A stretch of DNA of 64,000 bases, taken from Clostridia bacterium (lineage in GTDB: Bacteria > Bacillota > Clostridia > UBA1212 > UBA1255). The stretch lies in NCBI GenBank assembly GCA_017935905.1, contig JAGBGO010000035.1, positions 36,064-100,063 of the forward strand, written 5' to 3'. Below are positions 3,930 to 64,000 of this stretch, piece by piece. The translations under genes and the position numbers were made by a program. Numbering within the stretch: the first letter of the stretch is position 1; the number at the start of each line of letters is the position of its first letter. The notes below the pieces were generated by a model. The model did no database searches, was not told the DNA's origin, and saw only the letters and a list, made by a program, of their open reading frames with translations.

Positions 3930-4336
3930 GGCTCCATCCCTCCCGGCCCTGTCTTTGCAGGTTTATTCCGCCACAGGCGCTCAATATTGTAGAACTCCCG
4001 CTCTTCTTCTAAAAATACGTGGGCCACCACGTCGGTGAAATCCATTAAAATCCAACGCGCCGTATCGTAACCCTCCAAATGCACGCAGGGCTGACCCGCT
4101 TCCTTCATCTTCTCCATCACTTCGTCGGCAATACCTCTTAAATGGGTAGAAGATGTGCCGCTGCAAAGAATAAATGCATCGGTAATAGGCGTCTGACCCG
4201 CCAAATCAATAACGTCAATTTGTTTCGCCTTTCGGTCCTCCATAGCATTGACTACAATTTCGGTAAAAATCTTTCCTTTATTTTGTTCGTTCATCACGTT
4301 ACGCTCCTTTATCATCTTATTCTTGCAACTTGCCAC
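3926..4336 (-). CDS. rsfS: Ribosome silencing factor RsfS (Iojap family)
   Basis: The 136-aa protein carries Iojap-like motifs (ILMDFTDVVAHVF..EREFYNIERLW). It sits in the conserved nadD-yqeK-rsfS arrangement. Confidence 0.8.
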   Translation of the reverse strand: MASCKNKMIKERNVMNEQNKGKIFTEIVVNAMEDRKAKQIDVIDLAGQTPITDAFILCSGTSSTHLRGIADEVMEKMKEAGQPCVHLEGYDTARWILMDFTDVVAHVFLEEEREFYNIERLWRNKPAKTGPGGMEP

Positions 4337-5474
4337 GCGCCCAATCTCGGGTATCTTTCGTGTCTTGGCAAATGGGTTTACCTTGTTCTTCTAAATGGGC
4401 GATGGTCATCTCGCATTCCGCCAGCACTGCAGGCAGCAATCCTTCTCGGTTCAGCACGTCCCGCACTTTGTCAAAATGAGGACCTTCCCTGCCGGCCTCG
4501 GTATAGTCCGCCACAAAAAGGATTTGTGCCAGCGTTCCCATACCGGGTTTGCCGGTGGTGTGGCATGCAATGGCTTCCAAAATATCGGGATCCTCCACAC
4601 CGTAACGGGTAGCGGCTAAAATTTCCGAGGCTTTTGCATGAAGCAATGCGCCATTATCCCCCTCTAACCCAAGCCATGCGTACTGGGCTTTTGTAAATTC
4701 CCGGGCTCCATCGTGGAGAAGGCCCGCCCACGCACATTTGTCTTCCGGGACTCCTACTTTGCGTCCGATGCGCATCGCTTCTTCCATCACCCCAATGCTG
4801 TGGGCGTATCGGGAAGGACTCAGCCGATTTTGCAGTTCTTGAGCAGCCGTTTCCAGATTCTTATGCTTGTCCCTTTGGTAAAGACCATTTTCCCGGATGA
4901 TTTCCGCCACACTTCCGGGCAGCCACCCATCCATATTTCGTCCTGCTTCGCAGCCGCTGCGAATTTCCGTGGAAGAAATGTCCACGCTGGGTACTTCCGC
5001 AAATTGAATCCGGGCGCCTTCCCGGGTGAGTTCCATATACTCAGTCCGGAAGTCTTCCCGGCTGTATCCCGGCCTGTACATCGCCACAAAACTACATAAT
5101 CGAAAGACTTGGTGATAATCTTTCCAGTGCTTTAAGTCCGCCAGTACGTCTGCGCCGATGATCCACACGTATTCCCCATCCGGATCTTGTGCGTGAAGGC
5201 TGCGTAGCGTGTCTACGGTGTAGGTATATCCGTTTCTTCGAATTTCCATATCCGATACGGAGAATTTAGGATTGCCGGTTTCCCGGATTGCTGCCTGCAC
5301 CATTTGCAGGCGCAGGATTCCCGGCGTTACGTTCCGATGTACCTTGTGAGGCGGGTCTCCCGTGGGCATAAATATCACGCGATCCAACCCTGCAGCGTTG
5401 AATACCGCAGAGGCTACGTCAATATGCCCTTTATGGATCGGATCAAACGTCCCTCCAAAAATCCCAATTCTCAT
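4317..5474 (-). CDS. nadD: Fused nicotinate-nucleotide adenylyltransferase NadD (N-terminal) and YqeK-type HD-domain phosphohydrolase (C-terminal)
   Basis: The N-terminus MRIGIFGGTFDPIHKGH carries the (H/T)xGH nucleotidyltransferase motif. The C-terminus carries an HD domain (YAHSIGV...LLHDGARE). It is one continuous 385-aa ORF. Confidence 0.8.
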   Translation of the reverse strand: MRIGIFGGTFDPIHKGHIDVASAVFNAAGLDRVIFMPTGDPPHKVHRNVTPGILRLQMVQAAIRETGNPKFSVSDMEIRRNGYTYTVDTLRSLHAQDPDGEYVWIIGADVLADLKHWKDYHQVFRLCSFVAMYRPGYSREDFRTEYMELTREGARIQFAEVPSVDISSTEIRSGCEAGRNMDGWLPGSVAEIIRENGLYQRDKHKNLETAAQELQNRLSPSRYAHSIGVMEEAMRIGRKVGVPEDKCAWAGLLHDGAREFTKAQYAWLGLEGDNGALLHAKASEILAATRYGVEDPDILEAIACHTTGKPGMGTLAQILFVADYTEAGREGPHFDKVRDVLNREGLLPAVLAECEMTIAHLEEQGKPICQDTKDTRDWARGKLQE

Positions 5475-7455: not shown

Positions 7456-7728
7456 TCAGATTTTGTGCATAGCATTGAAAATGTCTACGTGTTGCAACCG
7501 GATGCGTAGACCCATTTCGTCTCCCAATGCCGCCAAATTCGCCGCAAGCGGTGCAAAGCCACCCTTCACAGACGTAACGTCTACCAGCATGGTCATGGTA
7601 AAAATCTCATCCATAGTGGTTTGGCTGATATCTAAAATATTCACGTCTGCTTCTGCAAGCATATTGGATACGGCAGCAATAATGCCTACCCGGTCACTGC
7701 CGATCACCGTAAGTACTGCTTTAATCAT
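7456..7728 (-). CDS. ACT-domain protein (UPF0237 family)
   Basis: The 90-aa protein has the ACT-like motif MIKAVLTVIGSDRVGIIAAVSNMLAEADVNILDISQT. Confidence 0.7.
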   Translation of the reverse strand: MIKAVLTVIGSDRVGIIAAVSNMLAEADVNILDISQTTMDEIFTMTMLVDVTSVKGGFAPLAANLAALGDEMGLRIRLQHVDIFNAMHKI

Positions 7729-7752
7729 GGTATAATGCCTCCTTGTACGAAA

Positions 7753-8649
7753 TTACTGTTCCAACGTTTTGAAGCTGTACCCCTTGCCGGTGGCTTGGGT
7801 AATGAAGTCATCTAATACGTTAAACAAGGCTTCACTGGTATCCATAGAATAGATGATACCGTCTGCCAGACTTTCCACCATAACGCTCAAAGCATTCTTG
7901 GTTTCTCCGCCAATGGTGCGGGACCACAAGGCTACTTTGTAGCCCATAGCTTCTGCAATTGCGATATCCCGCGCGGAAATCTTCATAGGATCCGGGCGGA
8001 AAAATTCCATACGCTTGGTCGCCCCTGCGATACCTTGATAAGTTTCTTCCATGGTCCACAATTTATCACAGAACTGTTCGGGCGTGATGGTAGCGGTAGC
8101 AAAATTACCGCGAACGCCCAACACGTGACCTTCATTTACGATGCGTTTTAAAATATTCTCTGCTTCGTCGCCTAAATTCTTGTTAAGTTCAATGAAATTA
8201 TCCGGCATAAAGAACGTAGCTTTCAGGCTACTACCTTTCAACAAATCCAAAATTTTGACTTCCGTCCCTTGGATATAGCCTAAGTTGAACGTCAAATATA
8301 TATCAAGTCCTGTATCATCTGCTTTGGAATAGAAACAGGTAGTGTCTTTAATCACGGTCAAGGATTCCATATCGAAAGAAGACCATGCTTGATGATACGT
8401 AGCGGACAAACTGCTCAATTTTGTATAATCCACCGCGGGCCGCACGACAGGTCCCTGAGTAGGTTCCGGCGTCGCCGTAGGAGATGGCGTCCCTTGTGAT
8501 GCTGCCAACGTAGGAGATGCCGTTACCGGCGCCTTGGAAGGCTCGTTCAAAATTTCCTGGCTTTCCGGTCCTGTGAACGCTTGGGATACAATCAGCACCG
8601 TAACCGCAATAAACAATATGAAAAGTGCAATTAAATGACTCTTTCTCAT
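7753..8649 (-). CDS. Secreted NodB-homology (polysaccharide deacetylase-like) protein with degenerate catalytic motifs
   Basis: It has a signal peptide (MRKSHLIALFILFIAVTVLIV) and a Pro/Thr-rich linker. The NodB-like domain has TFNLGY in place of TFDDG and GHVLGVRG in place of H(S/T)xxH. Confidence 0.5.
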   Translation of the reverse strand: MRKSHLIALFILFIAVTVLIVSQAFTGPESQEILNEPSKAPVTASPTLAASQGTPSPTATPEPTQGPVVRPAVDYTKLSSLSATYHQAWSSFDMESLTVIKDTTCFYSKADDTGLDIYLTFNLGYIQGTEVKILDLLKGSSLKATFFMPDNFIELNKNLGDEAENILKRIVNEGHVLGVRGNFATATITPEQFCDKLWTMEETYQGIAGATKRMEFFRPDPMKISARDIAIAEAMGYKVALWSRTIGGETKNALSVMVESLADGIIYSMDTSEALFNVLDDFITQATGKGYSFKTLEQ

Positions 8650-8782
8650 TGGATCTCTCTCCTTCGATAGTATAACCTCTTGGATTATAACAAAGTTCCG
8701 GCAAAAAAACAATCGTCTTTTGCCGTCTGTCGGTTTGCCGGATTTCTATTTTGAAATGTACCGAACCAACGGAAAGCACCCG

Positions 8783-8822
8783 CCCTCCGGCCGGAGAGCA
8801 GGTGCTTCACAAAGCATTTTTC
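8783..8822 (-). terminator. GC-rich hairpin terminator downstream of the 8965-12525 gene and the small ORF
   Basis: On the minus strand the stem GAAGCACCtgctctccggccggagggcgGGTGCTTC is followed by a U-rich segment. Confidence 0.4.
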
Positions 8823-8835
8823 TTATAAACCCTTC

Positions 8836-8949
8836 TTACGGAAGATTCAAATCATCTTCCCAATCCGTTCCCTGCGTAGATTCTGTAATAATATCCTGTA
8901 CTTGGAACGTAAATACCTCAATTTCTGCTGTTTCAAAAATCTCTTTCAT
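8836..8949 (-). CDS. Candidate 37-aa acidic small protein (MKEIFETAEIEVFTFQVQDIITESTQGTDWEDDLNLP)
   Basis: A strong GGAGGGGG ribosome-binding site lies 7 nt upstream of the ATG, directly after the stop of the giant gene. The ORF lies upstream of the terminator hairpin. Confidence 0.3.
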   Translation of the reverse strand: MKEIFETAEIEVFTFQVQDIITESTQGTDWEDDLNLP

Positions 8950-8964
8950 ATCAGTTCCCCCTCC

Positions 8965-11900
8965 TTACGGGTTGTAGGCACTTGCCGCACAGCCATAATC
9001 ATAAACCGCTTGAATCAATGCATAGGACTTGCTCGTCTCGTCATTTGCAGCCACAAATGCATTGACGTAGGAGTTGATGCTGTAAGTAACTTCCTGTACA
9101 AGAACACCGTCTACGTACAAGCCAACTACAACGGGTGTGTCAAACTGGTGTGCATAAACTCCGTCGTAATCCCAGTAATAAATATTACCGGTGGACAATT
9201 CGAAGTTGTCATACGTTGTCTCGCCTACTTTGATCGTAATCTTGCTTGCGTCATTGGTTACGAACTTAAAGCGAAGACGTACGGTATTGAACAATGCGAG
9301 GCTTGCAGACTTCCAGTAGTTATTTGCATCGCTGCGTGTACCTACGCTCCGAACGCTTCCTGCATTGGTCATAGCTTGATTTACAGATGTCTTCTCACCG
9401 GCATCCAACTGGCTGTTGGCAAAGAGTGTAGCATCCGTAACACCTTCAAAGTACTTTTGAGACTCTGTTCCGTAGTTCAGCATTGCAATCAACACGTCGC
9501 GAAGTTTCTGCTTCTGACCGCTTGTATCCGCCGCTGCATCCTCTGCAGAAGGCAACATATTCATACAGTATTGTTGTAGGCTGTACGTCGCCACTTTATC
9601 TTTCCGCATACCGTCGATATACAATTCCGCAGAAATATTCTCACACATATCTTGAGGAAGAATATCCGGCAAGGAGAAGGTATACTGACCGTCGGCCTCT
9701 ACACCGTCCACCCAAATTACTTCACCTTTGAAGGTAAACTTCATTTGAACGGATTCCGCATCGTCAACATCAACATCGGCCTGCAAGTGAAGTGTAATCG
9801 CCTCATCCAACTCAGGTGCTGCCGTCTTAATTTCGCCTTCAACACCTTCTGTGATGGAGAAGTTCTTTACGTCAAAACCGGCAGTGCCGCCTTCCGCCAT
9901 AAAACCAAAATAAGCAATGTCCGCTGCAGTAGGCAAACGGTCAATCTTCTCAACAAACAATTGCTCACCGTCTAAGAACACTTGAATAGATTTTCCGGTT
10001 ACCTCTGCAGTTAAGTTAAACCACTGCTTGGTAGAGAAATCAAGACCGGATTTAACAACTACAAAGCTGTCAATATAAGCAATACCACTGGAATACGTAT
10101 GCTCCGGATCACTACCTTGTGCATGGCCACGGAACGACATCGTACCTGCAGCCATATCAAAGTCAAAACGAAGTTGATGGAATCTATAACCGCTGGATAC
10201 TTTCTCGCCAACCAAGAAACCGGCTCCGCCAACTTTGTCCACACCAGATGTGGTGATACATCTGTTCGGGGAGAAATCAACACTAACCTTATAACTTTCA
10301 AACGGAATCGTACGTGTACCTGAAATCCAAGACCCACCATTGCTTATAACAGGGACTCTCATGATGTAATCACCATTTTCATCTACGGTATAGCAATCCG
10401 TTTGATCATGAGCATTCAGTTGTTGAACATTTTTAAACCAATATTTAGCAGTATCATAATGTTCAAACACCTTCTCCGAAACGATATTGTCTACACCTTC
10501 ATAGATGCCGAAGTTCTTAATAGATTGTGTTGCTCCGGACGGGAAGAAACCAATATAGTTCAGTTCACCGGACGTAGGGAAATGACCCAATGATGCAGTT
10601 GTGATACTACCACCCGTTTTTGGATCGGTGAAATCCGGCGCTTGGTAGCCATCAAAATAAATCATAGTTTTCGTAGGTGTTACCTTGAAAACAACCTCAT
10701 GCCACGTGTCCGCATCAAAATCACCCTTATACCAAGAAGTTCCATACGTGGGTGTTGCAACATTCGTTCCACAATGCTCCCATACGTAAAAACTAACTGT
10801 CTTTGCGTCATAGTTCGGGTCAAAACGAATATTCATCCACTTAAGGTCATTAGGCGCGCTGCCATATCCCAAAAGAACACCCATATACTTACTTCCGTCA
10901 GACTTAATGTTCATCTTTACGGTATAACTGCCGTCCGGAAGTGCCACTTTCGTATAGGAATCCGTATGCGTTGTGGGAACCGAGTATACGTAATCCCCCT
11001 CGTCATCCAAATAGAACGTACCGGCGCAAGCACCTGCAAAATAATTCTTCATGTTTGCCTGATTTGCAAAAACATGTTTATAAATCAAATTTTCAGGACC
11101 GGTTGACGTCTCGGGAATAATCGATGTGTCTTCCGAATCCGGATAAACAATGTGAATCGTATGGGTTTGATTTCTTGCCGCTCCACCAAAACTCTGAATA
11201 CGGAAGTATACGCCATCCTCACCAGTTTCTTCACCCACGCCTTGGATTTCACTTAACTTTTGACGAGAAGTAAGCGCAGTGGCGGTCTCCGCATAAGAAT
11301 CAAATGCAGAACCGGTCTTGTCGCCAATTCCACGAATCATTACATTGCCGGTTTCATTCTTGGAGAAAGCAAATACATAGCCTTCCTCTGCAAAATCTGC
11401 GTAATTTCCATAGGTCACATGACTGTTAATGTCACGGATACTAATTGTGGAATATACAAGATTTTCATTGCTGCGCACATACCAAGTCATAGCTTGTTTG
11501 TTGGTATACGAAGGATTAATCGTACCCGAAGTGGAGGGATCACCCACTAACTGTACGAAAGAATAGTCATTGGTCGGATCATCCGGAATAATATGGATAT
11601 ATCCCTTACCATCTTTACCATCAGAACCAATCAAATCCGTCAACTTCACATGATGCTGTACAAAGCCCGGCTCAGCAGCAAGATTTACACGTACCGTATC
11701 ATAGACCATTGCCTCGTGGCTTTCGCTGAGAATCTCCGCGCCGCCACCTGTCGTCCAACGGCTGGGTTTTCTCTCGTCCACAGTAGAAGTCTTCGGTTTC
11801 GGATAAACAACTTTAATCGTGTATTTCAAATTGCTGGTTGCATCACCAAAACTCTGCAATCGGAAATATACACCATCTTCACCGGACGTCTCTCCGGCAC

Positions 11901-12525
11901 CTTGAATTTCACTCAATTTCAATCGGGAAATTAAAGAGGTCGTGTCCTCATAAGAATCAAAAGTGTTATATGTACGCTCGCCAATACCACGAATCATAAC
12001 GTTACCCACTTCATTCTTGGAGAAAGCAAACATAAATCCCTCGGATTTAATTTGAGATTGGATACCATAAATCTTAACAGGATTTCCTTCTCCTCTAAGA
12101 TATACAAGAGAGTTAGCACTACCATCGGTTCTAAGATACCAAGTCATCGCCTTTGTATCGCGTATCGGATCAATGCCGGTAGCACTGGGATCACCAACTA
12201 ATTGTACGAAAGAATAGTCCGTCATATAATTATCGCAGATAATATTGATATAGCCTTGACCATCTTCACCGTTCTCACCAATTAAATCCGTAAGAATCTG
12301 ATCCAGCTGCACATATCCGGAACCACTCTTCATATCCACTTCTACAATATCCGTAACCCAGGTAACGCTGGATTCGCTCAGTACCGATGCACCGGAACCG
12401 GCAGACCACTTAGAAGTAGACGTTGCCTCCGCACCTACACTCATCGGAAGCGTTACTGTAATCATCGAGCATACCATCAAAACCGTCAACAAAACGGAAA
12501 TGCTACTCTTCCACACTCTTTTCAT
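8965..12525 (-). CDS. Large (1186 aa) secreted multidomain protein
   Basis: It has an N-terminal signal peptide (MKRVWKSSISVLLTVLMVCSMITVTLPMSVGA). An internal ~220-aa tandem duplication follows. The C-terminal part has two concanavalin-A-like/LamG-type beta-sandwich segments. There is no LPXTG motif and no SLH domain. Confidence 0.6.
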   Translation of the reverse strand: MKRVWKSSISVLLTVLMVCSMITVTLPMSVGAEATSTSKWSAGSGASVLSESSVTWVTDIVEVDMKSGSGYVQLDQILTDLIGENGEDGQGYINIICDNYMTDYSFVQLVGDPSATGIDPIRDTKAMTWYLRTDGSANSLVYLRGEGNPVKIYGIQSQIKSEGFMFAFSKNEVGNVMIRGIGERTYNTFDSYEDTTSLISRLKLSEIQGAGETSGEDGVYFRLQSFGDATSNLKYTIKVVYPKPKTSTVDERKPSRWTTGGGAEILSESHEAMVYDTVRVNLAAEPGFVQHHVKLTDLIGSDGKDGKGYIHIIPDDPTNDYSFVQLVGDPSTSGTINPSYTNKQAMTWYVRSNENLVYSTISIRDINSHVTYGNYADFAEEGYVFAFSKNETGNVMIRGIGDKTGSAFDSYAETATALTSRQKLSEIQGVGEETGEDGVYFRIQSFGGAARNQTHTIHIVYPDSEDTSIIPETSTGPENLIYKHVFANQANMKNYFAGACAGTFYLDDEGDYVYSVPTTHTDSYTKVALPDGSYTVKMNIKSDGSKYMGVLLGYGSAPNDLKWMNIRFDPNYDAKTVSFYVWEHCGTNVATPTYGTSWYKGDFDADTWHEVVFKVTPTKTMIYFDGYQAPDFTDPKTGGSITTASLGHFPTSGELNYIGFFPSGATQSIKNFGIYEGVDNIVSEKVFEHYDTAKYWFKNVQQLNAHDQTDCYTVDENGDYIMRVPVISNGGSWISGTRTIPFESYKVSVDFSPNRCITTSGVDKVGGAGFLVGEKVSSGYRFHQLRFDFDMAAGTMSFRGHAQGSDPEHTYSSGIAYIDSFVVVKSGLDFSTKQWFNLTAEVTGKSIQVFLDGEQLFVEKIDRLPTAADIAYFGFMAEGGTAGFDVKNFSITEGVEGEIKTAAPELDEAITLHLQADVDVDDAESVQMKFTFKGEVIWVDGVEADGQYTFSLPDILPQDMCENISAELYIDGMRKDKVATYSLQQYCMNMLPSAEDAAADTSGQKQKLRDVLIAMLNYGTESQKYFEGVTDATLFANSQLDAGEKTSVNQAMTNAGSVRSVGTRSDANNYWKSASLALFNTVRLRFKFVTNDASKITIKVGETTYDNFELSTGNIYYWDYDGVYAHQFDTPVVVGLYVDGVLVQEVTYSINSYVNAFVAANDETSKSYALIQAVYDYGCAASAYNP
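11115..12414 (-). repeat. Intragenic tandem duplication (two ~650-bp diverged repeat units) inside the 1186-aa gene
   Basis: Protein residues ~36-255 and ~256-470 are colinear paralogues. Examples are ...GYINIICDNYMTDYSFVQLVGDPS... versus ...GYIHIIPDDPTNDYSFVQLVGDPS..., and ...GVYFRLQSFG... versus ...GVYFRIQSFG... Confidence 0.7.
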
Positions 12526-56231: not shown

Positions 56232-58430
56232 TTATTTTACAGTAGCATTTTGAACATTGGAAGTTACAAGCGTACCAATATTCTCAGCAGTAAGAAGAAC
56301 ACCGTTCAACCGGCAGTTCTCAAAGGTAACCGCCGCACGAGGATCCATTGCAAAGCCTTCGCTGAAATCGCAATCTACAAAGGTTGTGGGCGCATAGGGA
56401 CGGCAGAACGCATAACCTGCACCCTTACCAAAACTACAGCCTGTAAATTCAGCATCGCCAATAGTTGCAGCATAACTGGTCCAACCATTGATAACACAGT
56501 TTGTAGCCGTTAAACCATTACCGGTTCCTTGATCACAACTAATTGTGTAGGTAGGACCATCAATGGTTACATTTTCCAAATAAACTCTGCTACCTGTAGC
56601 GTTGTGATTTACAAACACACCACGGAAACCTTTTGCAATTGTCAGATTTTTTATCGTGCCACCAGTGATATTAATGGCAGAATCCCATGTACTGGTTGCA
56701 CCATTAACAATCAAGACCTTACCATTTCCATCCAAAGTTTCACCATTTTTGATATTGAGACCGGTAGCGCCATATCCATTACTCTCACTGTCAGTGGTTG
56801 TAATATCACAATCGAGGATGATAAGCTGTGCATCTCCTTCCAATGCTTCTCTAAGTGCATCAGCATCTTTTGCATAAGCAATCATCGTCTCAGCACTCTC
56901 TATATCGTAACACTCATACCCGTCATTATCGATGTAAGGCGCTTTGATTGTAGACAACCCAAAATTGGCGACATTATCCCTGACTAATGTGTTGCATTTA
57001 GAAAGCGCATAGAAATTTCTAAGAGCAATTACAGTCATATCTCCAGCAAAGGTATTCAGGAAACTATTTTCCAGAACAGAAATCTTTAATGCATAAGAAC
57101 AAGAAGCATTGTTATGGGGTGTAACGACTACATTACCATTCATAAACGTATTACCAATTACAGAAACGTGACCCTGGGTAGCACCTACATACACAGCAGT
57201 ATTTACAGTTGTATCTGCGGTTCCAAAACTGTTGTTGATAATCTTAAATTCGCCTTTAAGCTGATAACCGGGATAGTACATATAAATATAATATAAGGCA
57301 TCCGTTTCAAAGGTACACCCATCAATAACAGCACCTTTCATACCGCCACTTTTACGATTTCTTTCATAGAAAACAACAGGAATATATTTACTGGAATCTG
57401 CAGGCTTTCCGGTAAAGGTACAATTGATAATTTGCAGATTATCTGCACCGTTTGCGCTGTTCTCGGCACCAGTCACATTGGTGTAAAGATCAAGTGCATT
57501 ATTGACGCCACTTGTTTTAGTCATACCGTACGCCATCTGAGCACCTGCCGCATCAAAGGTAATGCCAATCAACTTGCAATTATTCTTTGCATTGGCATTA
57601 ACATAGTCAACAACAGCAGAATTAGTAACCAGTGTCAAATCGTTTTGAGTCAGTGTAAGTTTGCCATATTGTCCATCAGACAATCCAATTACCATACCTT
57701 CTGTAGCTGTAGCAAGAATATCGTCAATGGTTTCAGGTGTAGCAACTACATCACAAGGCAAAGCATCTGCATCGTAATCATTACCGAAGGCATCATTCTC
57801 ATTGACATATTGAGTAGCTACAAGATTAATTCCTAATCTGATGGTAGGAACAACAGTCCCGGTCTTGTAATTTGCCTCATTACCAACGGTTTCAGGCATA
57901 TAAACTACCATGGAAATATAATCCGTATCATTGGTAGACTCCAGGGTAGAGCCTTTGGAAAATCCTGCCGAAATTACGTTGGCGTCTGTAATAGCAGCTC
58001 GTGCCTCATCCCGACTTGCAAAAGCTGTTTCTGTTTCAACAACACCAAATTGAATATAGTTAGAAAGCTTAAATTTCTCTCCCGAAACATTTGTGCCCAA
58101 TGTTTCAGAAATAACATTAATGCCCAAATGATACTTAAACGCCAGGGTACCAGCGTTTACCACTTTCAGATACACAACTTCTGTATGACCGGGTTCCCAA
58201 AGAGCCTCCGCATCAAATACGTTGGTATTCTCATCCACAAGTTTCCAATCCTTTGCGTCCGTGCTCCAATACAATTCTGCATCCAAATTACCGGACTTAA
58301 TAATATTATTGTTCGATGATACACTGTCTGTAAACCATGCAAAAGTAGTACCAACCAACATAGATACGCACATAACGAGTGCCAATGCACTCATCAATAA
58401 AGCACGTTTTGTGCTTTTTGTTTTTGTCAT
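56232..58430 (-). CDS. Large (732 aa) fusion of an N-terminal TasA/camelysin-like domain with a C-terminal right-handed parallel beta-helix (pectate-lyase-like) region
   Basis: The SipW-cognate signal is ALVMCVSMLVGTTFAWFTDS. A ~220-aa TasA-like domain follows. Then come many beta-helix rungs (..NCTFTG.., ..IINNSFG.., ..VIGNTFMNGN.., ..LENSFLN.., ..TGGTIKNLTI.., ..ATNCVINGW..). An AGGAGG ribosome-binding site is present, and its start overlaps the upstream stop. Confidence 0.55.
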   Translation of the reverse strand: MTKTKSTKRALLMSALALVMCVSMLVGTTFAWFTDSVSSNNNIIKSGNLDAELYWSTDAKDWKLVDENTNVFDAEALWEPGHTEVVYLKVVNAGTLAFKYHLGINVISETLGTNVSGEKFKLSNYIQFGVVETETAFASRDEARAAITDANVISAGFSKGSTLESTNDTDYISMVVYMPETVGNEANYKTGTVVPTIRLGINLVATQYVNENDAFGNDYDADALPCDVVATPETIDDILATATEGMVIGLSDGQYGKLTLTQNDLTLVTNSAVVDYVNANAKNNCKLIGITFDAAGAQMAYGMTKTSGVNNALDLYTNVTGAENSANGADNLQIINCTFTGKPADSSKYIPVVFYERNRKSGGMKGAVIDGCTFETDALYYIYMYYPGYQLKGEFKIINNSFGTADTTVNTAVYVGATQGHVSVIGNTFMNGNVVVTPHNNASCSYALKISVLENSFLNTFAGDMTVIALRNFYALSKCNTLVRDNVANFGLSTIKAPYIDNDGYECYDIESAETMIAYAKDADALREALEGDAQLIILDCDITTTDSESNGYGATGLNIKNGETLDGNGKVLIVNGATSTWDSAINITGGTIKNLTIAKGFRGVFVNHNATGSRVYLENVTIDGPTYTISCDQGTGNGLTATNCVINGWTSYAATIGDAEFTGCSFGKGAGYAFCRPYAPTTFVDCDFSEGFAMDPRAAVTFENCRLNGVLLTAENIGTLVTSNVQNATVK

Positions 58431-58450
58431 TTTATTTTTCCTCCTAATCA

Positions 58451-59137
58451 TTAAGCCTCAATGGCCATTCCAACAGTCGCGAAAGCTTCATACGCATTAT
58501 CGCCAACGTGCTCAGTCTGTACCGCCTGAGCCTTTACGTCAATTGCAAAACTGCCGCTAAACGCAGCCGCTTGTTCTCGCGTTAGGGACTCGGGAACCTT
58601 CACAGCGTTGAAGAGTACCAGATCTTCTTCGCTTTCAAGAATATCCGTATAGTACAGTACGTAGGTAACAGTATCTGTTTCGCCATTGATATCTTTCGAG
58701 ATATGATCCCATTTCGTTTCATCAAAACCAACAAAGACCGTGTTCATATCAATATCCAAGCCAACTGCATTGATCCATGCGGTCGCATCAGAAATCTTCA
58801 CAATCACACGAATGTATTGATCGTAATGACCCGTATTGGTAACGTGTGCAATCTTACTGAGTTCGTCACCGGGAAGAATATTCTCATAAACAAGGGACGC
58901 ATCTGTTCTCTCAACATCCTCGACTTCATTAAAGTCACCGTCGCCGTTAGAATCTTTCTGCTCCCATACATCTACAGAGAAAATCTTATCCGGCGTATTG
59001 TCCTCAGAATCAGCAACGAAGAATTCGTTGTACACGCTGTCCTTGTGTGAGAACCATGCGAGTGATCCCATAGAGAGAATGGCGATTAAGCATACTGCCA
59101 AAGCTGTTACAAAAACCTTTTTCTTATTGAACTTCAT
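58451..59137 (-). CDS. TasA/camelysin (peptidase M73 / CalY)-like protein with a SipW-cognate signal peptide
   Basis: MKFNKKKVFVTALAVCLIAILSMGSLAWFSHK is followed by a TasA-like beta-domain. The protein is 228 aa. Confidence 0.6.
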   Translation of the reverse strand: MKFNKKKVFVTALAVCLIAILSMGSLAWFSHKDSVYNEFFVADSEDNTPDKIFSVDVWEQKDSNGDGDFNEVEDVERTDASLVYENILPGDELSKIAHVTNTGHYDQYIRVIVKISDATAWINAVGLDIDMNTVFVGFDETKWDHISKDINGETDTVTYVLYYTDILESEEDLVLFNAVKVPESLTREQAAAFSGSFAIDVKAQAVQTEHVGDNAYEAFATVGMAIEA

Positions 59138-59193: not shown

Positions 59194-59403
59194 TTACCGG
59201 TAAAATGGCAATAAAGATAACCACAATTCCCTTCTTTGCCAAATCCAGTACTGCCGTTCTTCCCCTTCCGTGCGGTCAATTTCCGAATTTACATACTGAA
59301 GCTCCCGGCAAAAATCTCTAATCCAAAGAACAAAGCCAACCAGCAAAAGAAAACCAAAACCGCCGCCAATGATGACTGCCAAAATTGCTACCATTTCATC
59401 CAT
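59194..59403 (-). CDS. Small single-transmembrane protein (69 aa)
   Basis: The sequence MDEMVAILAVIIGGGFGFLLLVGFVLWIR... has a ribosome-binding site 12 nt upstream. Its start overlaps the end of sipW. Confidence 0.3.
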   Translation of the reverse strand: MDEMVAILAVIIGGGFGFLLLVGFVLWIRDFCRELQYVNSEIDRTEGEERQYWIWQRRELWLSLLPFYR

Positions 59404-59935
59404 GCGTAGGCGGTACCTCCTTCTTCCGCTTGGCGATTAAATCCGGCAAGAAAACCACAAGAATCAGCGCCACACCGCCGGCCAGTACAAAATACATACC
59501 CGGTGGATTTTGAATAAACTCTGCCACGTATCCCAAATAGGGAATACTGAATTGAGGTACACCGATTACGTTGTTGTAATGCACCGGGGAAGAATCCACC
59601 GTATTGTTAGCGTCACCTTTGGTGTAGAACACTTGCTTCTCTGTATCGACTTCTACAACCCGATGCGTTGCCACCACTAAATTCTCATTTAAGATAAACG
59701 TAATGGGGTCACCCACTTGAATCGTGCTTTTGTCTTTCACGGTTTTTACGTAGATCAAATCGCCTGCGCTGTACGTAGGCTCCATACTGCCGGAAAGCAC
59801 GTTAAACACCCGGTACCCTAATATTCGGGAACCCATCAAGAACACGGCACATAACACCACCAGCACAACGATTACAGTAGACACACTATTCCAAATGCGC
59901 TTTGCACGCTTCTTCGTTCTCTCATTCATAGTCAT
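59396..59935 (-). CDS. sipW: Signal peptidase I, SipW (archaeal/eukaryal S26B) type
   Basis: It has an N-terminal transmembrane helix, the catalytic Ser block VLSGSMEPTYSAGDLIYV, the His/Asp region GDANN and a C-terminal transmembrane helix. Confidence 0.8.
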   Translation of the reverse strand: MTMNERTKKRAKRIWNSVSTVIVVLVVLCAVFLMGSRILGYRVFNVLSGSMEPTYSAGDLIYVKTVKDKSTIQVGDPITFILNENLVVATHRVVEVDTEKQVFYTKGDANNTVDSSPVHYNNVIGVPQFSIPYLGYVAEFIQNPPGMYFVLAGGVALILVVFLPDLIAKRKKEVPPTHG

Positions 59936-60617
59936 CCGTTCCTTCCCGGATTTCTTTCTCCGCAAGTTGCGCTTTCAAGGCTTCCAACTCTGCCAGCACA
60001 CGGGCACTTTCTTCCCGTTCTTCTGAAAGCTTTTGTCGCTCCGCTTCCATCTCCGCCATTTGCTCCTGTTTATATTTTCGGAACAATTGAATACAACGAA
60101 AGCCCTGATAGAGAATCAGCAACATAAAAGGCACAAAGATACAAAGCATATAGCCTTGGGTGGTTTTCATAAAGTTGAAGAATGTTCCCACATCAGGAAT
60201 GTGACCGGTGTACTTACCCAAAATATAAGGGTACGTAACAATAGTCGCATCATCGGTGTCTGTGGTAGTACCGTATGTAACAAATCCCGGATTCCCTTTG
60301 GCATCCGTGGTTTTGCGCCGAATTTTATGGGTAATGGTTTCTCCGAAACTTTCGCTGTCTTGTGAAATAAACGTAATAATGTCCCCTTCTTTCAGGGTGG
60401 ACGGGCTCACTTCTTTCACAAAAATCAAATCGCCGGCATCAAAATCCGTTTTGCTCATAGAGTCTGTCCGTACTACAAATGCTTTGTATCCAAACAAACT
60501 GCGATCATTTCGGTTGAAAGTGGTTACGGAAATAACGGTAAAAATCATCATACACACCGCAACTGCCACCACAATCCACACCAGTACTTTTCGAACAATC
60601 CCCAATATCTTTTTCAT
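59922..60617 (-). CDS. Second SipW-type signal peptidase I paralogue with a C-terminal coiled-coil extension
   Basis: The sequence is MKKILGIVRKVLVWIVVAVAV...VVRTDSMSKTDFDAGDLIFV...; it has a second transmembrane helix and an acidic coiled-coil tail (EQMAEMEAERQKLSEEREESARVLAELEALKAQLAEKE). Confidence 0.7.
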   Translation of the reverse strand: MKKILGIVRKVLVWIVVAVAVCMMIFTVISVTTFNRNDRSLFGYKAFVVRTDSMSKTDFDAGDLIFVKEVSPSTLKEGDIITFISQDSESFGETITHKIRRKTTDAKGNPGFVTYGTTTDTDDATIVTYPYILGKYTGHIPDVGTFFNFMKTTQGYMLCIFVPFMLLILYQGFRCIQLFRKYKQEQMAEMEAERQKLSEEREESARVLAELEALKAQLAEKEIREGTDDYE

Positions 60618-60630
60618 GCAAAATTCCCCT

Positions 60631-60789
60631 CTATTTATCGTTCTTTTGCGCCAAACTTTCTGATAACTTTTCAAAAAACGCTTCGGTTTCTTCTTTGGAC
60701 GTCTGCTGGTCGCTCTCACAGTTCGGACAAATCATTCGCCCCTCCGGAACCGGGACTCCGCAACAGACACAAATATCTACATCGTTCAT
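60631..60789 (-). CDS. 52-aa Cys4 zinc-ribbon protein, first gene of the operon
   Basis: The sequence is MNDVDICVCCGVPVPEGRMICPNCESDQQTSKEETEAFFEKLSESLAQKNDK. An AGGAAG ribosome-binding site is present. It lies 13 nt upstream of the second sipW start. Confidence 0.45.
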   Translation of the reverse strand: MNDVDICVCCGVPVPEGRMICPNCESDQQTSKEETEAFFEKLSESLAQKNDK

Positions 60790-60817
60790 TTATCCACACC
60801 ACTTCCTTACCTGTTGG

Positions 60818-61091
60818 CACATAATGATTATTATGTTGTATGAGAGGTAACTTGTTTCTGAAGCAATAACGTTTTTATGCGTTCCGACAAAATATAAAGG
60901 TATAGAAAAATAACCTTTCCTTAGAAATTCAAAGGCAAGGTTTCACTCATATTACGTAATTGTTGTATTTTTTGTAAACTAATTATAGAATTAGTTGATT
61001 TCTTCAAAAAGGTATGCTATTATACGGCACACGAATGGCATATTCGTGTGTCTTCGTATGTATATACTTACAACATAATAATCATTATGTG
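60818..61091. promoter_or_regulatory. Putative invertible (phase-variable) promoter segment bracketed by perfect 23-bp inverted repeats
   Basis: The left inverted repeat CACATAATGATTATTATGTTGTA is at 60818-60840. The right copy at 61069-61091 is its exact reverse complement. The 228-bp AT-rich core contains sigma-A-like promoters in both orientations. On the minus strand TTTACA-18-TAATAT lies at 60949-60978. On the plus strand TTGATT-17-TATTAT lies at about 60996-61024. A hairpin is at 61028-61050. The tyrosine recombinase gene abuts the right inverted repeat. Confidence 0.55.
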
Positions 61092-61096
61092 TTCTT

Positions 61097-61918
61097 TTAC
61101 AGCAACAATCTCAAATTTTCCATTCTTTTTTGATGTTCATATCCGGTTGTCATAATATAAATTCTGGTCGTATTGATATTGGAGTGCCCCAGTATATCCG
61201 CAAGCTTTGCAATATCTTTTTCAATACCGTAAAATGTCCGGGCAAATAAGTGCCTTAAATTATGAGGAAAAACTTTCTCCGGAGCTACGCCGGCCTGCTT
61301 ACACAGATGTTTCATTTCTCGCCAAATATTGCTACGGCTGATGGGTTTACCGTTACGGGTGGTAAAAATCATACCGGTCTGAATACCCTGTCTGGCAATA
61401 TATTGCTTCAATTTGTCCCTTAATTCCCGCACAAGAAAGATTTTTCGTATCTTACCCTTGCAGGAAACCATTGCCTCTCCCTTCTTCACTGCTTCTACCG
61501 TGATGGCGGAAAGCTCACTGACGCGAATGCCGGTGGCACAAATGGTTTGCACAATCAGGGATAAGCGCCTGTTCTGCTGTCGTTCCGCCGCGCGAACCAA
61601 TCGGAAATATTCCTCTTTCGTCAGTTCTTTTTGGGCAGGACAATAGGCTTCTTGCTGGATTTTGTACTGTTTCACGCATAAATGATGCCTGCCGGCGAAA
61701 CGCAAATAACTGTTTAGGGATGCAATCATAGAGTTTGCACTGCGTACAGCGTACTGCTCGCCCAAATGTTTTTTGTAGTTAAGAATGTCTTGTTTGACGG
61801 GAACTTTATCCCCCATATATTGCATAAAGTATCGGATGTCTCTTAGATATTTTTCAATCGTTGCAGGACTTTTTTCATCCTCTTGCAAAAATTGTTTAAA
61901 TTGTTCGATCGTTGTCAT
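61097..61918 (-). CDS. Tyrosine site-specific recombinase (XerC/D-integrase family), candidate invertase for the adjacent switch
   Basis: The catalytic signature is R (TGIRVSEL) ... HNLRHLFA ... LGHSNINTTRIY. The protein is about 274 aa. An AAAGGAG ribosome-binding site is present. Confidence 0.8.
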   Translation of the reverse strand: MTTIEQFKQFLQEDEKSPATIEKYLRDIRYFMQYMGDKVPVKQDILNYKKHLGEQYAVRSANSMIASLNSYLRFAGRHHLCVKQYKIQQEAYCPAQKELTKEEYFRLVRAAERQQNRRLSLIVQTICATGIRVSELSAITVEAVKKGEAMVSCKGKIRKIFLVRELRDKLKQYIARQGIQTGMIFTTRNGKPISRSNIWREMKHLCKQAGVAPEKVFPHNLRHLFARTFYGIEKDIAKLADILGHSNINTTRIYIMTTGYEHQKRMENLRLLL

Positions 61919-62054: not shown

Positions 62055-64000
62055 ATGAGAAATTACAACATTAAAGCTGCGCTGTTCGATTTGGATGGCG
62101 TGATCGTGTTTACCGACAAATATCACTATTTGGCATGGAAGCAATTGTCCGACGAGCAGGGCTGGGATTTCAATGAAACTGTCAACAACCGCCTGCGGGG
62201 CATTCCCAGATTGGCTTCCTTAGAAGAGATTTTGAAGCACAACAACATTGATCTTCCTTTGGAGGAGAAGATTGTGCTGATGAACCGGAAGAATGATTAT
62301 TACGTAAAGCTTTTAGAGCAGATCAATCCCGGGGACGTTTATCCGGGTTCTGTGGAGTTTATTAAGAAACTGCGGGAAAGAGGCATTCTGATTTCCCTTT
62401 GTTCTTCCAGCAAGAACGCGCCCTTGGTGTTGGAGAAGTTAGGTCTTACAGAATTGTTTGACGCCGTTGTGACCGGTCACGATATTAAGAACGCAAAGCC
62501 GGATCCGGAGATTTTCTTACTTGGCGCAAAACGTCTGAATATGCCCGTATTCCACTGCGTTGTTTTTGAAGATGCCAAAGCCGGCATTGAAGGTGCCCGG
62601 GCGGCCCGCATGAAGACCGTAGGTGTGGGAAACAAAGAAGAAACAGAGAAGATTGCGGATACGTTCATTATGAACTACGACGAAATCGACGTGGAAACGT
62701 TCTTGGAGTCGGGACGGAAACAGCCTTTGCCGGTACATGAAACCAAGATTATTGAAACCGAGTTTAATCCTTACGATACAGGCCATATTGAAAGTGTTTT
62801 TGCATTGGGTAACGGATACATCGGTCTTCGGGGTACCTACGATGAAACGGACGAGGGCAGCAAGAGTTTGCCGGGGATGTATTTGAACGGCATTTTCTGT
62901 ACCAGAGAACTGAATCACCTTTTCCCCTTTCCGCTCCACTCCACCCACGACCAGTACACCATCAACTTGTCCGATTGGCGTATTTTCAATTTGTTTATTG
63001 ATGGAGAAAAGGCTTGCTTCTCCAAGGAGAATATCAAAGAACACCGCCGTGAATTGGATATGGTAAGAGGCGTCATTGAGAGATCTTTTGTATTTGAGAC
63101 TTCCACCGGCAAGAAAGCACAGGTACAGAGCCTTCGCATGGTAAATATGGACGAGGTACACGGTGCACAAGTTCAGTACAGTGTAACGCCCTTAAACTTT
63201 GACGGAGAAATCGTCATCAAGTCCGAAGTGGTGAAACTCACCGGCACTTGGGATTTGTGGCCTTGCGTGCTGGCTTCCGAACAGGATACGGACGGCATTT
63301 ACAGTTTCATTCAAGAAGTGACCACGACCAAACAGCGCGTCGCCTGCGCCGTTGCCCACACGGTGGGCGGTGCATCTAACGTTCGCGGGGAAAATAGTGA
63401 AAACTGTTACACCACCGTAATCACTGCAGATGCAAAGCGAGGCGTACCCGTAACGGTTTCTAAATACGTTGCTTTTAGTTGCACCATGGACAAGAGCGAA
63501 GATATGGAAGGGGATGCCCGCCGTTTGGCTGCTGCCAATCGGGATGCCGGCATGGAAGTGCTGGCGGCTCGCCAGGCTGCTTTCTGGAAGAAACACTGGG
63601 AGAACGGCGATATCATCGTAGAAGGCAACCCCGCCGACCAACAAGCCATCCGTTATAGCTTATTCCAGCTTCGTCAGCAATTAGCAACCATTAACCAAAG
63701 CCCCATCGGTGCTACAGGTCTTACAGGTCTGAATTACAGCGGCAAGGCATTCTGGGATACGGAAATGTACTTGATGCCTTATTACAATTTTACCCAGCCG
63801 GAGACGCAGAAAGAGTTGATTTTGTACCGTTACAAGACGCTCCCCAGAGCTCGCCAGCGTGCAAAAGAGTACGGTCTGTGCGGCGCCATGTATCCTTGGT
63901 GCGGTATTGACGGTGAAGAAACTTCCGTTGTATTCGAGGCTTCCACCGCAGAATACCACTTACACAGCGATATTGCTTACTCCATCTGGCGTTACTACGA
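62055..64000 (+). CDS. Fusion of beta-phosphoglucomutase (HAD) with a GH65 disaccharide phosphorylase (maltose/kojibiose/trehalose phosphorylase type). Partial; it continues past the window end.
   Basis: The N-terminal ~215 aa are HAD beta-PGM (AALFDLDGVIVFTDKYH...KNAKPDPEIF...FEDAKAGIEGARAA). They continue without a stop into the GH65 N-terminal domain (FNPYDTGHIESVFALGNGYIGLRG) and the catalytic domain (GLNYSGKAFWDTEMYLMPYY; EYHLHSDIAYSIWRYY). Confidence 0.8.
   Translation, partial: MRNYNIKAALFDLDGVIVFTDKYHYLAWKQLSDEQGWDFNETVNNRLRGIPRLASLEEILKHNNIDLPLEEKIVLMNRKNDYYVKLLEQINPGDVYPGSVEFIKKLRERGILISLCSSSKNAPLVLEKLGLTELFDAVVTGHDIKNAKPDPEIFLLGAKRLNMPVFHCVVFEDAKAGIEGARAARMKTVGVGNKEETEKIADTFIMNYDEIDVETFLESGRKQPLPVHETKIIETEFNPYDTGHIESVFALGNGYIGLRGTYDETDEGSKSLPGMYLNGIFCTRELNHLFPFPLHSTHDQYTINLSDWRIFNLFIDGEKACFSKENIKEHRRELDMVRGVIERSFVFETSTGKKAQVQSLRMVNMDEVHGAQVQYSVTPLNFDGEIVIKSEVVKLTGTWDLWPCVLASEQDTDGIYSFIQEVTTTKQRVACAVAHTVGGASNVRGENSENCYTTVITADAKRGVPVTVSKYVAFSCTMDKSEDMEGDARRLAAANRDAGMEVLAARQAAFWKKHWENGDIIVEGNPADQQAIRYSLFQLRQQLATINQSPIGATGLTGLNYSGKAFWDTEMYLMPYYNFTQPETQKELILYRYKTLPRARQRAKEYGLCGAMYPWCGIDGEETSVVFEASTAEYHLHSDIAYSIWRYY

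Follow-up and report, generated by a model that had tools for sequence, protein, structure and literature searches.

A zinc-ribbon gene at the head of a SipW/TasA-like fibre operon behind an invertible promoter in a Clostridia bacterium

Organisation of the SipW locus

The window, a stretch of 64,000 nucleotides of DNA from a gut Clostridia bacterium, contains a small minus-strand ORF (Table 1). As read from the window sequence, it has 52 codons, starts with ATG and stops with TAG. This ORF was found to be the first cistron of a SipW/TasA-like fibre operon located behind a recombinase-controlled invertible promoter. Its product is a protein of 52 aa (MNDVDICVCCGVPVPEGRMICPNCESDQQTSKEETEAFFEKLSESLAQKNDK), and since a TAA codon is present in frame immediately 5' of the ATG, the start is unambiguous. 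The SD-like AAGGAAGTG lies 10 nt from the ATG, a somewhat long spacing, and an SD-like site 8-12 nt 5' of the ATG is kept in the orthologues of loci L006, L087 and L091. At the other end, the stop codon is followed by 13 nt containing GAGGGGA and then by the ATG of sipW1, whose SD overlaps the stop region of the small ORF. The initial annotation had described a small Cys4 ORF with its own ribosome-binding site, placed between the invertible switch and the first sipW and 13 nt before the sipW start, and both the ORF and its placement were found exactly in that form.

The 52-aa protein has four zinc ligands (C7, C10, C21 and C24, in the arrangement C7-x2-C10-x10-C21-x2-C24) and a net charge of -6 calculated from its sequence, with 11 D/E and 5 K/R residues. 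It contains no His residues, hence no HxxxCxxC motif, and neither a signal peptide nor a TM segment was found in it. It is thus an acidic, cytoplasmic protein of the zinc-ribbon type, in which a predicted helix, fast-evolving, acidic and amphipathic, comes after the ribbon.

Table 1. Features of the SipW locus and its switch in the window.
Feature	Position	Strand	Remarks
739-aa camelysin/TasA-like protein	56232-58451	minus	SipW-type signal peptide; TIGR04088 25.1 bits, cut-off 19
228-aa SipW-dependent (BsaA/TasA-like) secreted protein	58451-59137	minus	
TM69, 69-aa single-pass membrane protein	59194-59403	minus	motif EIxRTxGxExxxWxxxxRxLWLSLLPF
SipW2, canonical SipW signal peptidase, 177 aa	59396-59929	minus	overlaps SipW1 by 8 nt
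SipW1, 231-aa divergent SipW-type signal peptidase	59922-60617	minus	TIGR02228 67.8 bits, cut-off 51.85
52-aa Cys4 zinc-ribbon ORF	60631-60789	minus	knuckles at residues 7-24, then an acidic amphipathic C-terminal tail
SD-like AAGGAAGTG	60800-60808	minus	5' of the small ORF; eight of nine positions match AAGGAGGTG
Inverted repeat arm, operon-proximal, 23 nt	60818-60840		perfect repeat with 61069-61091
Invertible segment, 228 bp	60841-61068		between the repeat arms; related homologous segments found inverted, flanks collinear
Extended -10 promoter TTGATT-17-TGcTATTAT	60995-61023	plus	inside the switch, facing away from the operon (OFF)
Inverted repeat arm, recombinase-proximal, 23 nt	61069-61091		perfect repeat with 60818-60840
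Tyrosine recombinase, 273 aa, presumed invertase	61097-61918	minus	Phage_integrase E = 2e-27; gene call in L001
GH65-family glycoside hydrolase gene	62055-63998	plus	runs past the end of the window

Among the products of the operon, SipW1 is an atypical signal peptidase with TDSMS in place of SGSMEP and THKI in place of THRV; it lacks the GDAN motif and ends in a coiled-coil tail of about 50 residues. A canonical SipW2 always accompanies SipW1 here, and the homologues of SipW1 amount to more than 7,000 clusters at 90% identity. TM69 has no family match in Pfam or NCBIfam, and its cytoplasmic motif recurs in SipW1 loci regardless of the type of gene that leads them. TM69 and the SipW1 tail are two conserved, cytoplasm-facing partners in SipW loci.

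The camelysin-like cargo was observed to vary between near-identical strains, with a protein of 739 aa in the window as against proteins of 1051 and 606 aa in another strain (L001:12360-17415). In the syntenic locus L091, a 1198-aa LRR_5 protein is inserted in the cargo region (7667-11263). Cassette-like turnover of the fibre/adhesin genes of the SipW locus is suggested.

The invertible switch

The 23-nt inverted repeat was found in identical form in five other assemblies that carry an identical 52-aa protein, and the 228-bp segment has the same orientation in the window and in all five of them. Only one strong promoter, TTGATT-17-TGcTATTAT, is present within the invertible segment. The assembled switch of the window most likely faces OFF, and since its sole strong promoter points away from the operon, the small ORF is probably silent in the assembled state. 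With the window and the five assemblies all showing one orientation, phase-OFF appears to be the predominant state of the SipW locus in the populations sampled. An operon-facing candidate, TTTACA-18-TAATAT, was rejected as the switch promoter as such sites are no better than chance (two sites against 3.0 expected).

Inversion of the segment would place the -10 element near position 60886 and would give a leader of about 90 nt running through the repeat arm into the small ORF. The small ORF had been proposed to be translated from a switch-driven transcript; its position as the first cistron behind the switch agrees with this, whereas the promoter as assembled points away and is likely OFF.

Both orientations were observed among related loci. 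An equivalent extended -10 promoter is directed toward the operon in five of them (L071, L074, L078, L082 and L008) and away from it in six (L065, L086, L007, L026, L087 and L091). In the L071 group, the inner switch segments are 78-92% identical as reverse complements only, whereas the downstream flanks (150 nt) align without inversion at 97-99% identity. These segments are thus inverted between genomes while their flanks remain collinear, which provides direct comparative evidence that these elements invert. The opposed copies of the switch are located at L065:1284-1563 and L086:473-752 on the one hand and at L071:4956-5235 and in L074, L078 and L082 on the other.

A repeat core, ACATAAT..ATTATGT, related to that of the window was found in L087, L091, L007 and L026. 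Three copies of the inverted repeat occur in four loci (L026:5315-5692, L029:121-472, L065:1221-1563 and L078:136-477), an arrangement that would permit alternative inversions. In L091, a good fixed promoter (aTGACt-17-TGTGTATAAT; L091:5844-6000) is present between the switch and the zinc-ribbon ATG, and expression in this locus may not depend on the switch alone.

Conservation and genomic context of the small ORF

Short ORFs are common in this region, where 6 kb contain 56 ORFs that reach 30 aa or more, and a length of 52 codons is not beyond chance. The gene status of the small ORF is therefore based on its conservation, which exceeds chance, and not on its length. The first homologue search, carried out with a word index, returned two clusters only, and an exhaustive HMMER search together with a profile search reached further, the former recovering full-length relatives (76% and 62% identical) and, below these, a series of proteins of 57-64 aa. 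Nine columns (C7, C10, G11, P15, E16, G17, C21, C24 and E25) are invariant in an alignment of 16 relatives, and R18 and M19 are nearly so. The same pattern was observed in an alignment of 105 sequences in which the Cys residues of the zinc knuckles are invariant or near-invariant.

The coding sequence shows signs of purifying selection. Comparison with an 82%-identical copy gave a dN/dS of 0.125/0.353 and comparison with a 52%-identical syntenic orthologue a dN of 0.316 with dS saturated (both Nei-Gojobori); counting values of about 0.35 and about 0.13, the ratio is about 0.35 or lower. Purifying selection extends to the tail of the zinc ribbon when close relatives are compared (0.091/0.566), and these relatives keep a [FY][FL]xx[LI]xxx[LF] stripe in it. 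The frequency of short ORFs in the region would fit a chance ORF in a 5' leader that is no gene at all, but the conservation, the invariant Cys4 set and a dN/dS below 1 effectively refute this reading, independent public gene calls exist, and we give it next to no credence. Judged from the sequence comparisons, the small ORF is a genuine protein-coding gene. The initial annotation had considered it small enough to be missed by automatic annotation. This is not the case, as NCBI lists it as 'hypothetical protein J6L76_03900 [Clostridia bacterium]' and the ENA gene calls, in which it is called on five contigs, include it as well.

The close junction with sipW1 could also be taken to mean that translation of the small ORF simply feeds ribosomes to the sipW1 start, the peptide itself being of little function. 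The 13-nt junction, the sipW1 SD overlapping the stop region and the stop/start overlaps found in relatives are in line with such a coupling leader. On the other hand, the Cys4 set and the PEGRM motif are strictly conserved and the tail is under purifying selection, so that the product itself must be under selection, and many SipW1 loci have no leader ORF. In addition, no RNA structure beyond that of shuffled controls was found at the small ORF/sipW1 junction (fold z = +0.9) that could hide the sipW1 RBS, and a model with a sequestered sipW1 RBS was dropped on this account. We regard a pure coupling leader as very unlikely.

Zinc ribbons linked to SipW genes were found in the window and in twelve other loci (L087, L091, L094, L097, L100, L103, L007, L017, L026, L033, L145 and L169). 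The junctions between the zinc ribbon and the next gene measure 13, 11, 22 or 1 nt, or are overlaps of 4 to 17 nt. Conservation upstream of sipW, the check that had been put forward for the ORF, was confirmed, as the relatives keep the ORF together with a tight or overlapping junction even in distant genomes. A SipW-locus context was observed in eight of the nine zinc-ribbon subfamilies looked up, the exception being the pseudogene-like P0132 type. The stand-alone subclade, to which the 52-aa protein belongs by its signature (CxxCGxx[VI]PEGRMxCxxCE, in proteins that stand alone and measure 44-67 aa) and by its context directly upstream of, and coupled to, SipW1 in a SipW/TasA-like cluster, thus recurs directly upstream of SipW1 or of TM69/74, usually with a gap of at most 22 nt or with a stop/start overlap.

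Two of these relatives are of particular use for comparison. The first is a 63-aa paralogue in the same MAG (P0126, J6L76_07080) that heads a second locus of matching architecture (L087:4939-12192). The gene order in this locus is recombinase, a pair of 26-nt inverted repeats 146 nt apart, zinc ribbon, two SipW genes, TM69 and three large camelysin-like proteins. Its repeat core resembles that of the window, and cross-recognition by both recombinases is conceivable. The second is the syntenic orthologue in L091 (P0276), which is 52% identical and has the same GH2, PemK and GH65 flanks; the synteny of both loci is confirmed by the GH65 gene of the window, which is 96% identical to the flanking gene of L091. 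Between these two loci, the zinc ribbon (52%) is far less similar than SipW1 (85%), the recombinase (83.5%), the 228-aa secreted protein (93%) and GH65 (96%), and the two paralogous zinc ribbons of the MAG are 36.5% identical as against 67.5% for the SipW1 copies. The zinc ribbon therefore evolves faster than its neighbours.

The remaining relatives show more varied surroundings. More than 200 assembly blocks contain P0259, which overlaps a gene of the SipW1 type, whereas P0303 and P0340 overlap the gene of TM74, a homologue of the TM69 of the window; such an overlap of a stand-alone zinc-ribbon gene with a TM74 gene was found in L097, L103, L145 and L169. P0286 adjoins a divergent XRE HTH gene and has no recombinase; a divergent XRE-type HTH gene of 75 aa is present beside the zinc ribbon in L094-L096. 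Other relatives likewise occur in SipW/TasA-like loci that have no recombinase or inverted repeat, and the zinc ribbon is thus not a device of the switch as such. The charge of the tail differs by subfamily, being acidic in the window and basic in L094, L097, L100 and L103. In L097, a 330-aa protein with three CRCSCG-type Cys repeats overlaps the zinc ribbon from upstream (4009-5001); one end of it resembles the AP2 DNA-binding type by eye, and it has no Pfam or NCBIfam match.

From the side of SipW1, 80 species-representative loci were fetched, and 78 of them allowed a classification of the co-oriented gene directly upstream. The most common was a TetR-family regulator (about 195 aa; PF00440 above cut-off; for example L071:5408-5995), with 37 occurrences. 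A camelysin-like protein was found in ten loci, a different small Cys4 protein (CxxC...GQLCxxC) in six and the zinc-ribbon family of the 52-aa protein in four (L007, L017, L026 and L033), the remaining 21 having none or another gene. A related recombinase, accompanied or not by inverted repeats, is present in about 25 of the fetched loci.

TetR and the zinc ribbon were never found together in one locus among the 78. The TetR leaders resemble the zinc ribbon in position, orientation and coupling to SipW1, and several are located behind the same type of switch (L071, L065, L078, L082 and L086), with the order recombinase, switch, TetR and sipW in L071-type loci. They differ from it in that their fold (about 195 aa) is unrelated and includes a DNA-binding HTH, whereas the zinc ribbon is acidic and has no obvious DNA-binding surface. 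The second small Cys4 type (54-94 aa, with weak similarity to DUF4428; L028:5703-5867, L029, L030, L063, L077 and L084:5739-5984) is unrelated to the zinc-ribbon family.

Zinc ribbons are absent within 6 kb in 74 of the 78 SipW1 loci, which have the same SipW1 tail and TM69. Carriage is at most about 15% of SipW1 loci (about 1,200 against more than 7,000 clusters), the figure of 1,200 being an upper bound as it takes in relatives outside SipW loci such as the P0132 type. The zinc ribbon is therefore optional in SipW1 loci, which fits a regulator better than core machinery.

Fold, wider family and possible function

No significant match to the 52-aa ORF or its relatives was found in Pfam, NCBIfam, PHROGs or PADLOC. 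The best Pfam matches were weak and to generic zinc-ribbon domains (E = 0.0024 and 0.0067), and the NCBIfam scan gave weak PRK00420 matches only. The two CxxC knuckles of the protein are spaced as in PF13240 Zn_Ribbon_1 (about 10-15 residues apart), and its fold class is probably the same; the score for this family is 18 bits against a gathering threshold of 25, which places the protein outside it, and a few relatives carry a precomputed PF13240 or PF18912 match. Generic zinc ribbons (PF13240, DZR/DZR_2) are alike in having two CxxC knuckles within about 20 residues, whereas the family of the window has the rigid signature given above and a specific genomic context. In the AF2 model, built from 105 sequences, the pLDDT is 69.6, a moderate confidence, with values of 77-86 for the knuckles and low confidence for the helix at residues 32-50. 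A Foldseek search of this model against the PDB gave nothing at E < 1 and generic zinc knuckles only. With this gene, already annotated as 'hypothetical', a subclade specific to SipW loci can be set apart within a known fold class.

Several known regulators were compared with the protein. DksA/TraR C4-type zinc-finger proteins bind in the secondary channel of RNA polymerase, and the half-motif CxxCGxP[IV]PExR is common to both groups. A family member matches PHROG 54, 'DksA-like zinc finger', without significance (E = 0.012), and a sequence-profile search of the PDB gave ORC1 and TraR as non-significant matches (E = 1.5 and 6.1 for TraR). The loop between the knuckles is 17 residues in TraR as aligned and 10 in the 52-aa protein, and the N-terminal coiled coil of DksA/TraR has no counterpart in the 52-aa protein, in which the ribbon starts from residue 7 and the helix is C-terminal. 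With a non-significant profile match, a short loop and no N-terminal coiled coil with an acidic tip, the protein is not a member of DksA/TraR.

CsfB/Gin, a small Cys4 anti-sigma factor of Bacillus, and SinI are small cytoplasmic proteins that regulate by binding to transcription factors, and the SinI/SinR anti-repressor pair controls the Bacillus tapA-sipW-tasA operon. The likeness to SinI/SinR lies in the link to a sipW/tasA-type operon, and an XRE gene is found beside the zinc ribbon in L094-L096 and not beside the ORF of the window. SinI has no zinc site, unlike the 52-aa Cys4 protein. No match of the 52-aa ORF to CsfB/Gin or any other anti-sigma family was found at E <= 1 in Pfam and NCBIfam, and the protein is a member of neither CsfB/Gin nor the ZAS (HxxxCxxC) group. 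Activator profiles of the phage Mu Com and P2 Ogr type gave no match in the Pfam or PHROG scans. The initial annotation had proposed a regulator of the anti-sigma or anti-repressor kind; a regulatory or adaptor role remains plausible from the TetR position and the paralogue-led second locus, whereas the kinship to anti-sigma factors or anti-repressors is backed by no significant family match.

The zinc-ribbon core as a whole is more widely distributed than the subclade. A metagenome scan with the family profile gave 455 relatives, and most of the best 80 are located outside SipW loci. The core was found as an N-terminal module fused to a Phage_holin_4_1 holin (E = 1.4e-29; L148 and L172) and to DUF551 (E = 2.4e-13; L180), in coiled-coil proteins that are about 130 aa long and carry a TM segment at the C-terminus (L124-L135 and L183-L187), and at the N-terminus of HD-like and winged-helix-like proteins. 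Some small members of the family carry a TM tail of their own, and eleven loci with the core are derived from viral contigs. GenBank phages, searched by tblastn with a relative of 96 aa, contained no match. The metagenome and viral scans contradicted an earlier view by which all members of the family belong to SipW loci, and this view was narrowed to the stand-alone subclade. The core is thus a promiscuous, phage-rich clostridial module, the link to SipW loci being limited to the stand-alone subclade that is closest to the window protein. One HMMER match of 1186 aa (P0125) was rejected as a relative, since it is a WD40 protein in which a CAVPMPDGR repeat occurs by chance; that its length equals that of the window ORF 8965-12525 is coincidental.

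The P0132 type, a 62-aa form abundant in human-gut contigs, has an in-frame stop (MVC*NCEK) or no ATG, and its copies look like decaying, pseudogene-like sequences. Copies of this type adjoin Wzz/CpsD-type EPS genes in eight loci (L111, L119, L123, L131, L132, L134, L136 and L137, about position 4019).

These observations bear on the view that the gene is a passenger of prophage origin, a stand-alone zinc ribbon from a phage-rich family that landed beside sipW and has no role in the fibre. The frequent occurrence of the core in viral contigs and in phage-type proteins (the holin and DUF551 fusions) and the pseudogene-like state of the P0132-type human-gut copies speak for it. Nevertheless, the zinc ribbon is placed repeatedly, position-specifically and in coupled form upstream of SipW1 or TM74 across genomes with 60-75% SipW identity, both paralogous loci of one genome carry it, and the gene is under purifying selection. 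The domain in general may have a passenger origin, which leaves the repeated coupled placement unexplained; for this gene we consider it improbable.

We tentatively favour, at a confidence that stops short of probable, a small protein-binding and locus-specific regulatory adaptor. The grounds for this preference are that the gene is optional, occupies the TetR position, diverges in a locus-specific manner and has no basic surface; a net charge of -6 without a basic surface points to protein binding rather than DNA binding. The argument from the TetR position is positional only, and with acidic tails in some subfamilies and basic tails in others it is uncertain that one mechanism holds for all members. 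According to this scheme, the zinc ribbon would be made only when the switch is ON, at a level comparable to that of SipW1 through translational coupling. The adaptor would then act through protein-protein contacts, filling the place that TetR has in the TetR-led related loci, and would tune how strongly its own fibre locus or the paralogous locus is expressed, without itself being part of the secretion machinery.

The main rival to the regulatory adaptor is a membrane-side accessory, in which the zinc ribbon docks on the coiled-coil tail of SipW1 or on TM69/74 and aids SipW processing or the assembly or gating of fibre export. Translational coupling to SipW1 or TM74 implies co-production, the SipW1 tail and TM69 are conserved and face the cytoplasm, and holins as well as coiled-coil proteins with a C-terminal TM segment carry the core at their N-terminus, while small members with a TM tail exist. 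The fusions and the TM74 overlaps fit a membrane-side partner as well as a regulator. Against this, 74 of the 78 SipW1 loci have the same tail and TM69 and lack the zinc ribbon within 6 kb, which shows that it is not an obligate subunit, and the tail chemistry of the zinc ribbon does not follow the neighbouring gene. An accessory of this kind is possible, though we hold it to be rather doubtful.

A more far-reaching form of regulation can be drawn by analogy with Bacteroides, in which UpxY and UpxZ are the first genes behind invertible capsule promoters and are present as a diverged paralogue for each locus. The resemblance lies in two paralogous switch-led loci in one MAG, each with a leader gene of its own. 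The differences are that there is no homology, that phylum and cargo are other ones, and that relatives of the zinc ribbon also occur in loci without a switch. If the analogy held, the leader of each phase-variable fibre locus would act in trans when ON and would silence or outrank the other fibre loci as a new zinc-ribbon and docking-helix adaptor that binds a conserved host factor, for example RNA polymerase. We consider this an unlikely extension.

In Bacillus biofilms, SipW/TasA-type fibres form the main protein scaffold. A literature search on sipW with the terms invertible, zinc ribbon, phase variation and gut Clostridia turned up no account of the gene, nor of SipW loci that vary in phase. 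From the loci described here, a large set of related SipW loci in uncultured gut Clostridia is phase-variable, and many of the more than 7,000 SipW1 clusters are located behind recombinase switches. The zinc ribbon is one of four alternatives at the head of these loci, the others being TetR, the second Cys4 type and no leader. Its function would show how these bacteria choose the surface fibre that they display. Should the protein act as a partner of SipW, it would provide a first example of a cytoplasmic accessory to a bacterial signal peptidase of the ER type, while a locus-specific factor acting in trans would represent a compact new regulatory principle. If trans-silencing by the leaders were true, these loci would provide a Gram-positive, protein-fibre counterpart of the UpxY/UpxZ hierarchy of Bacteroides.
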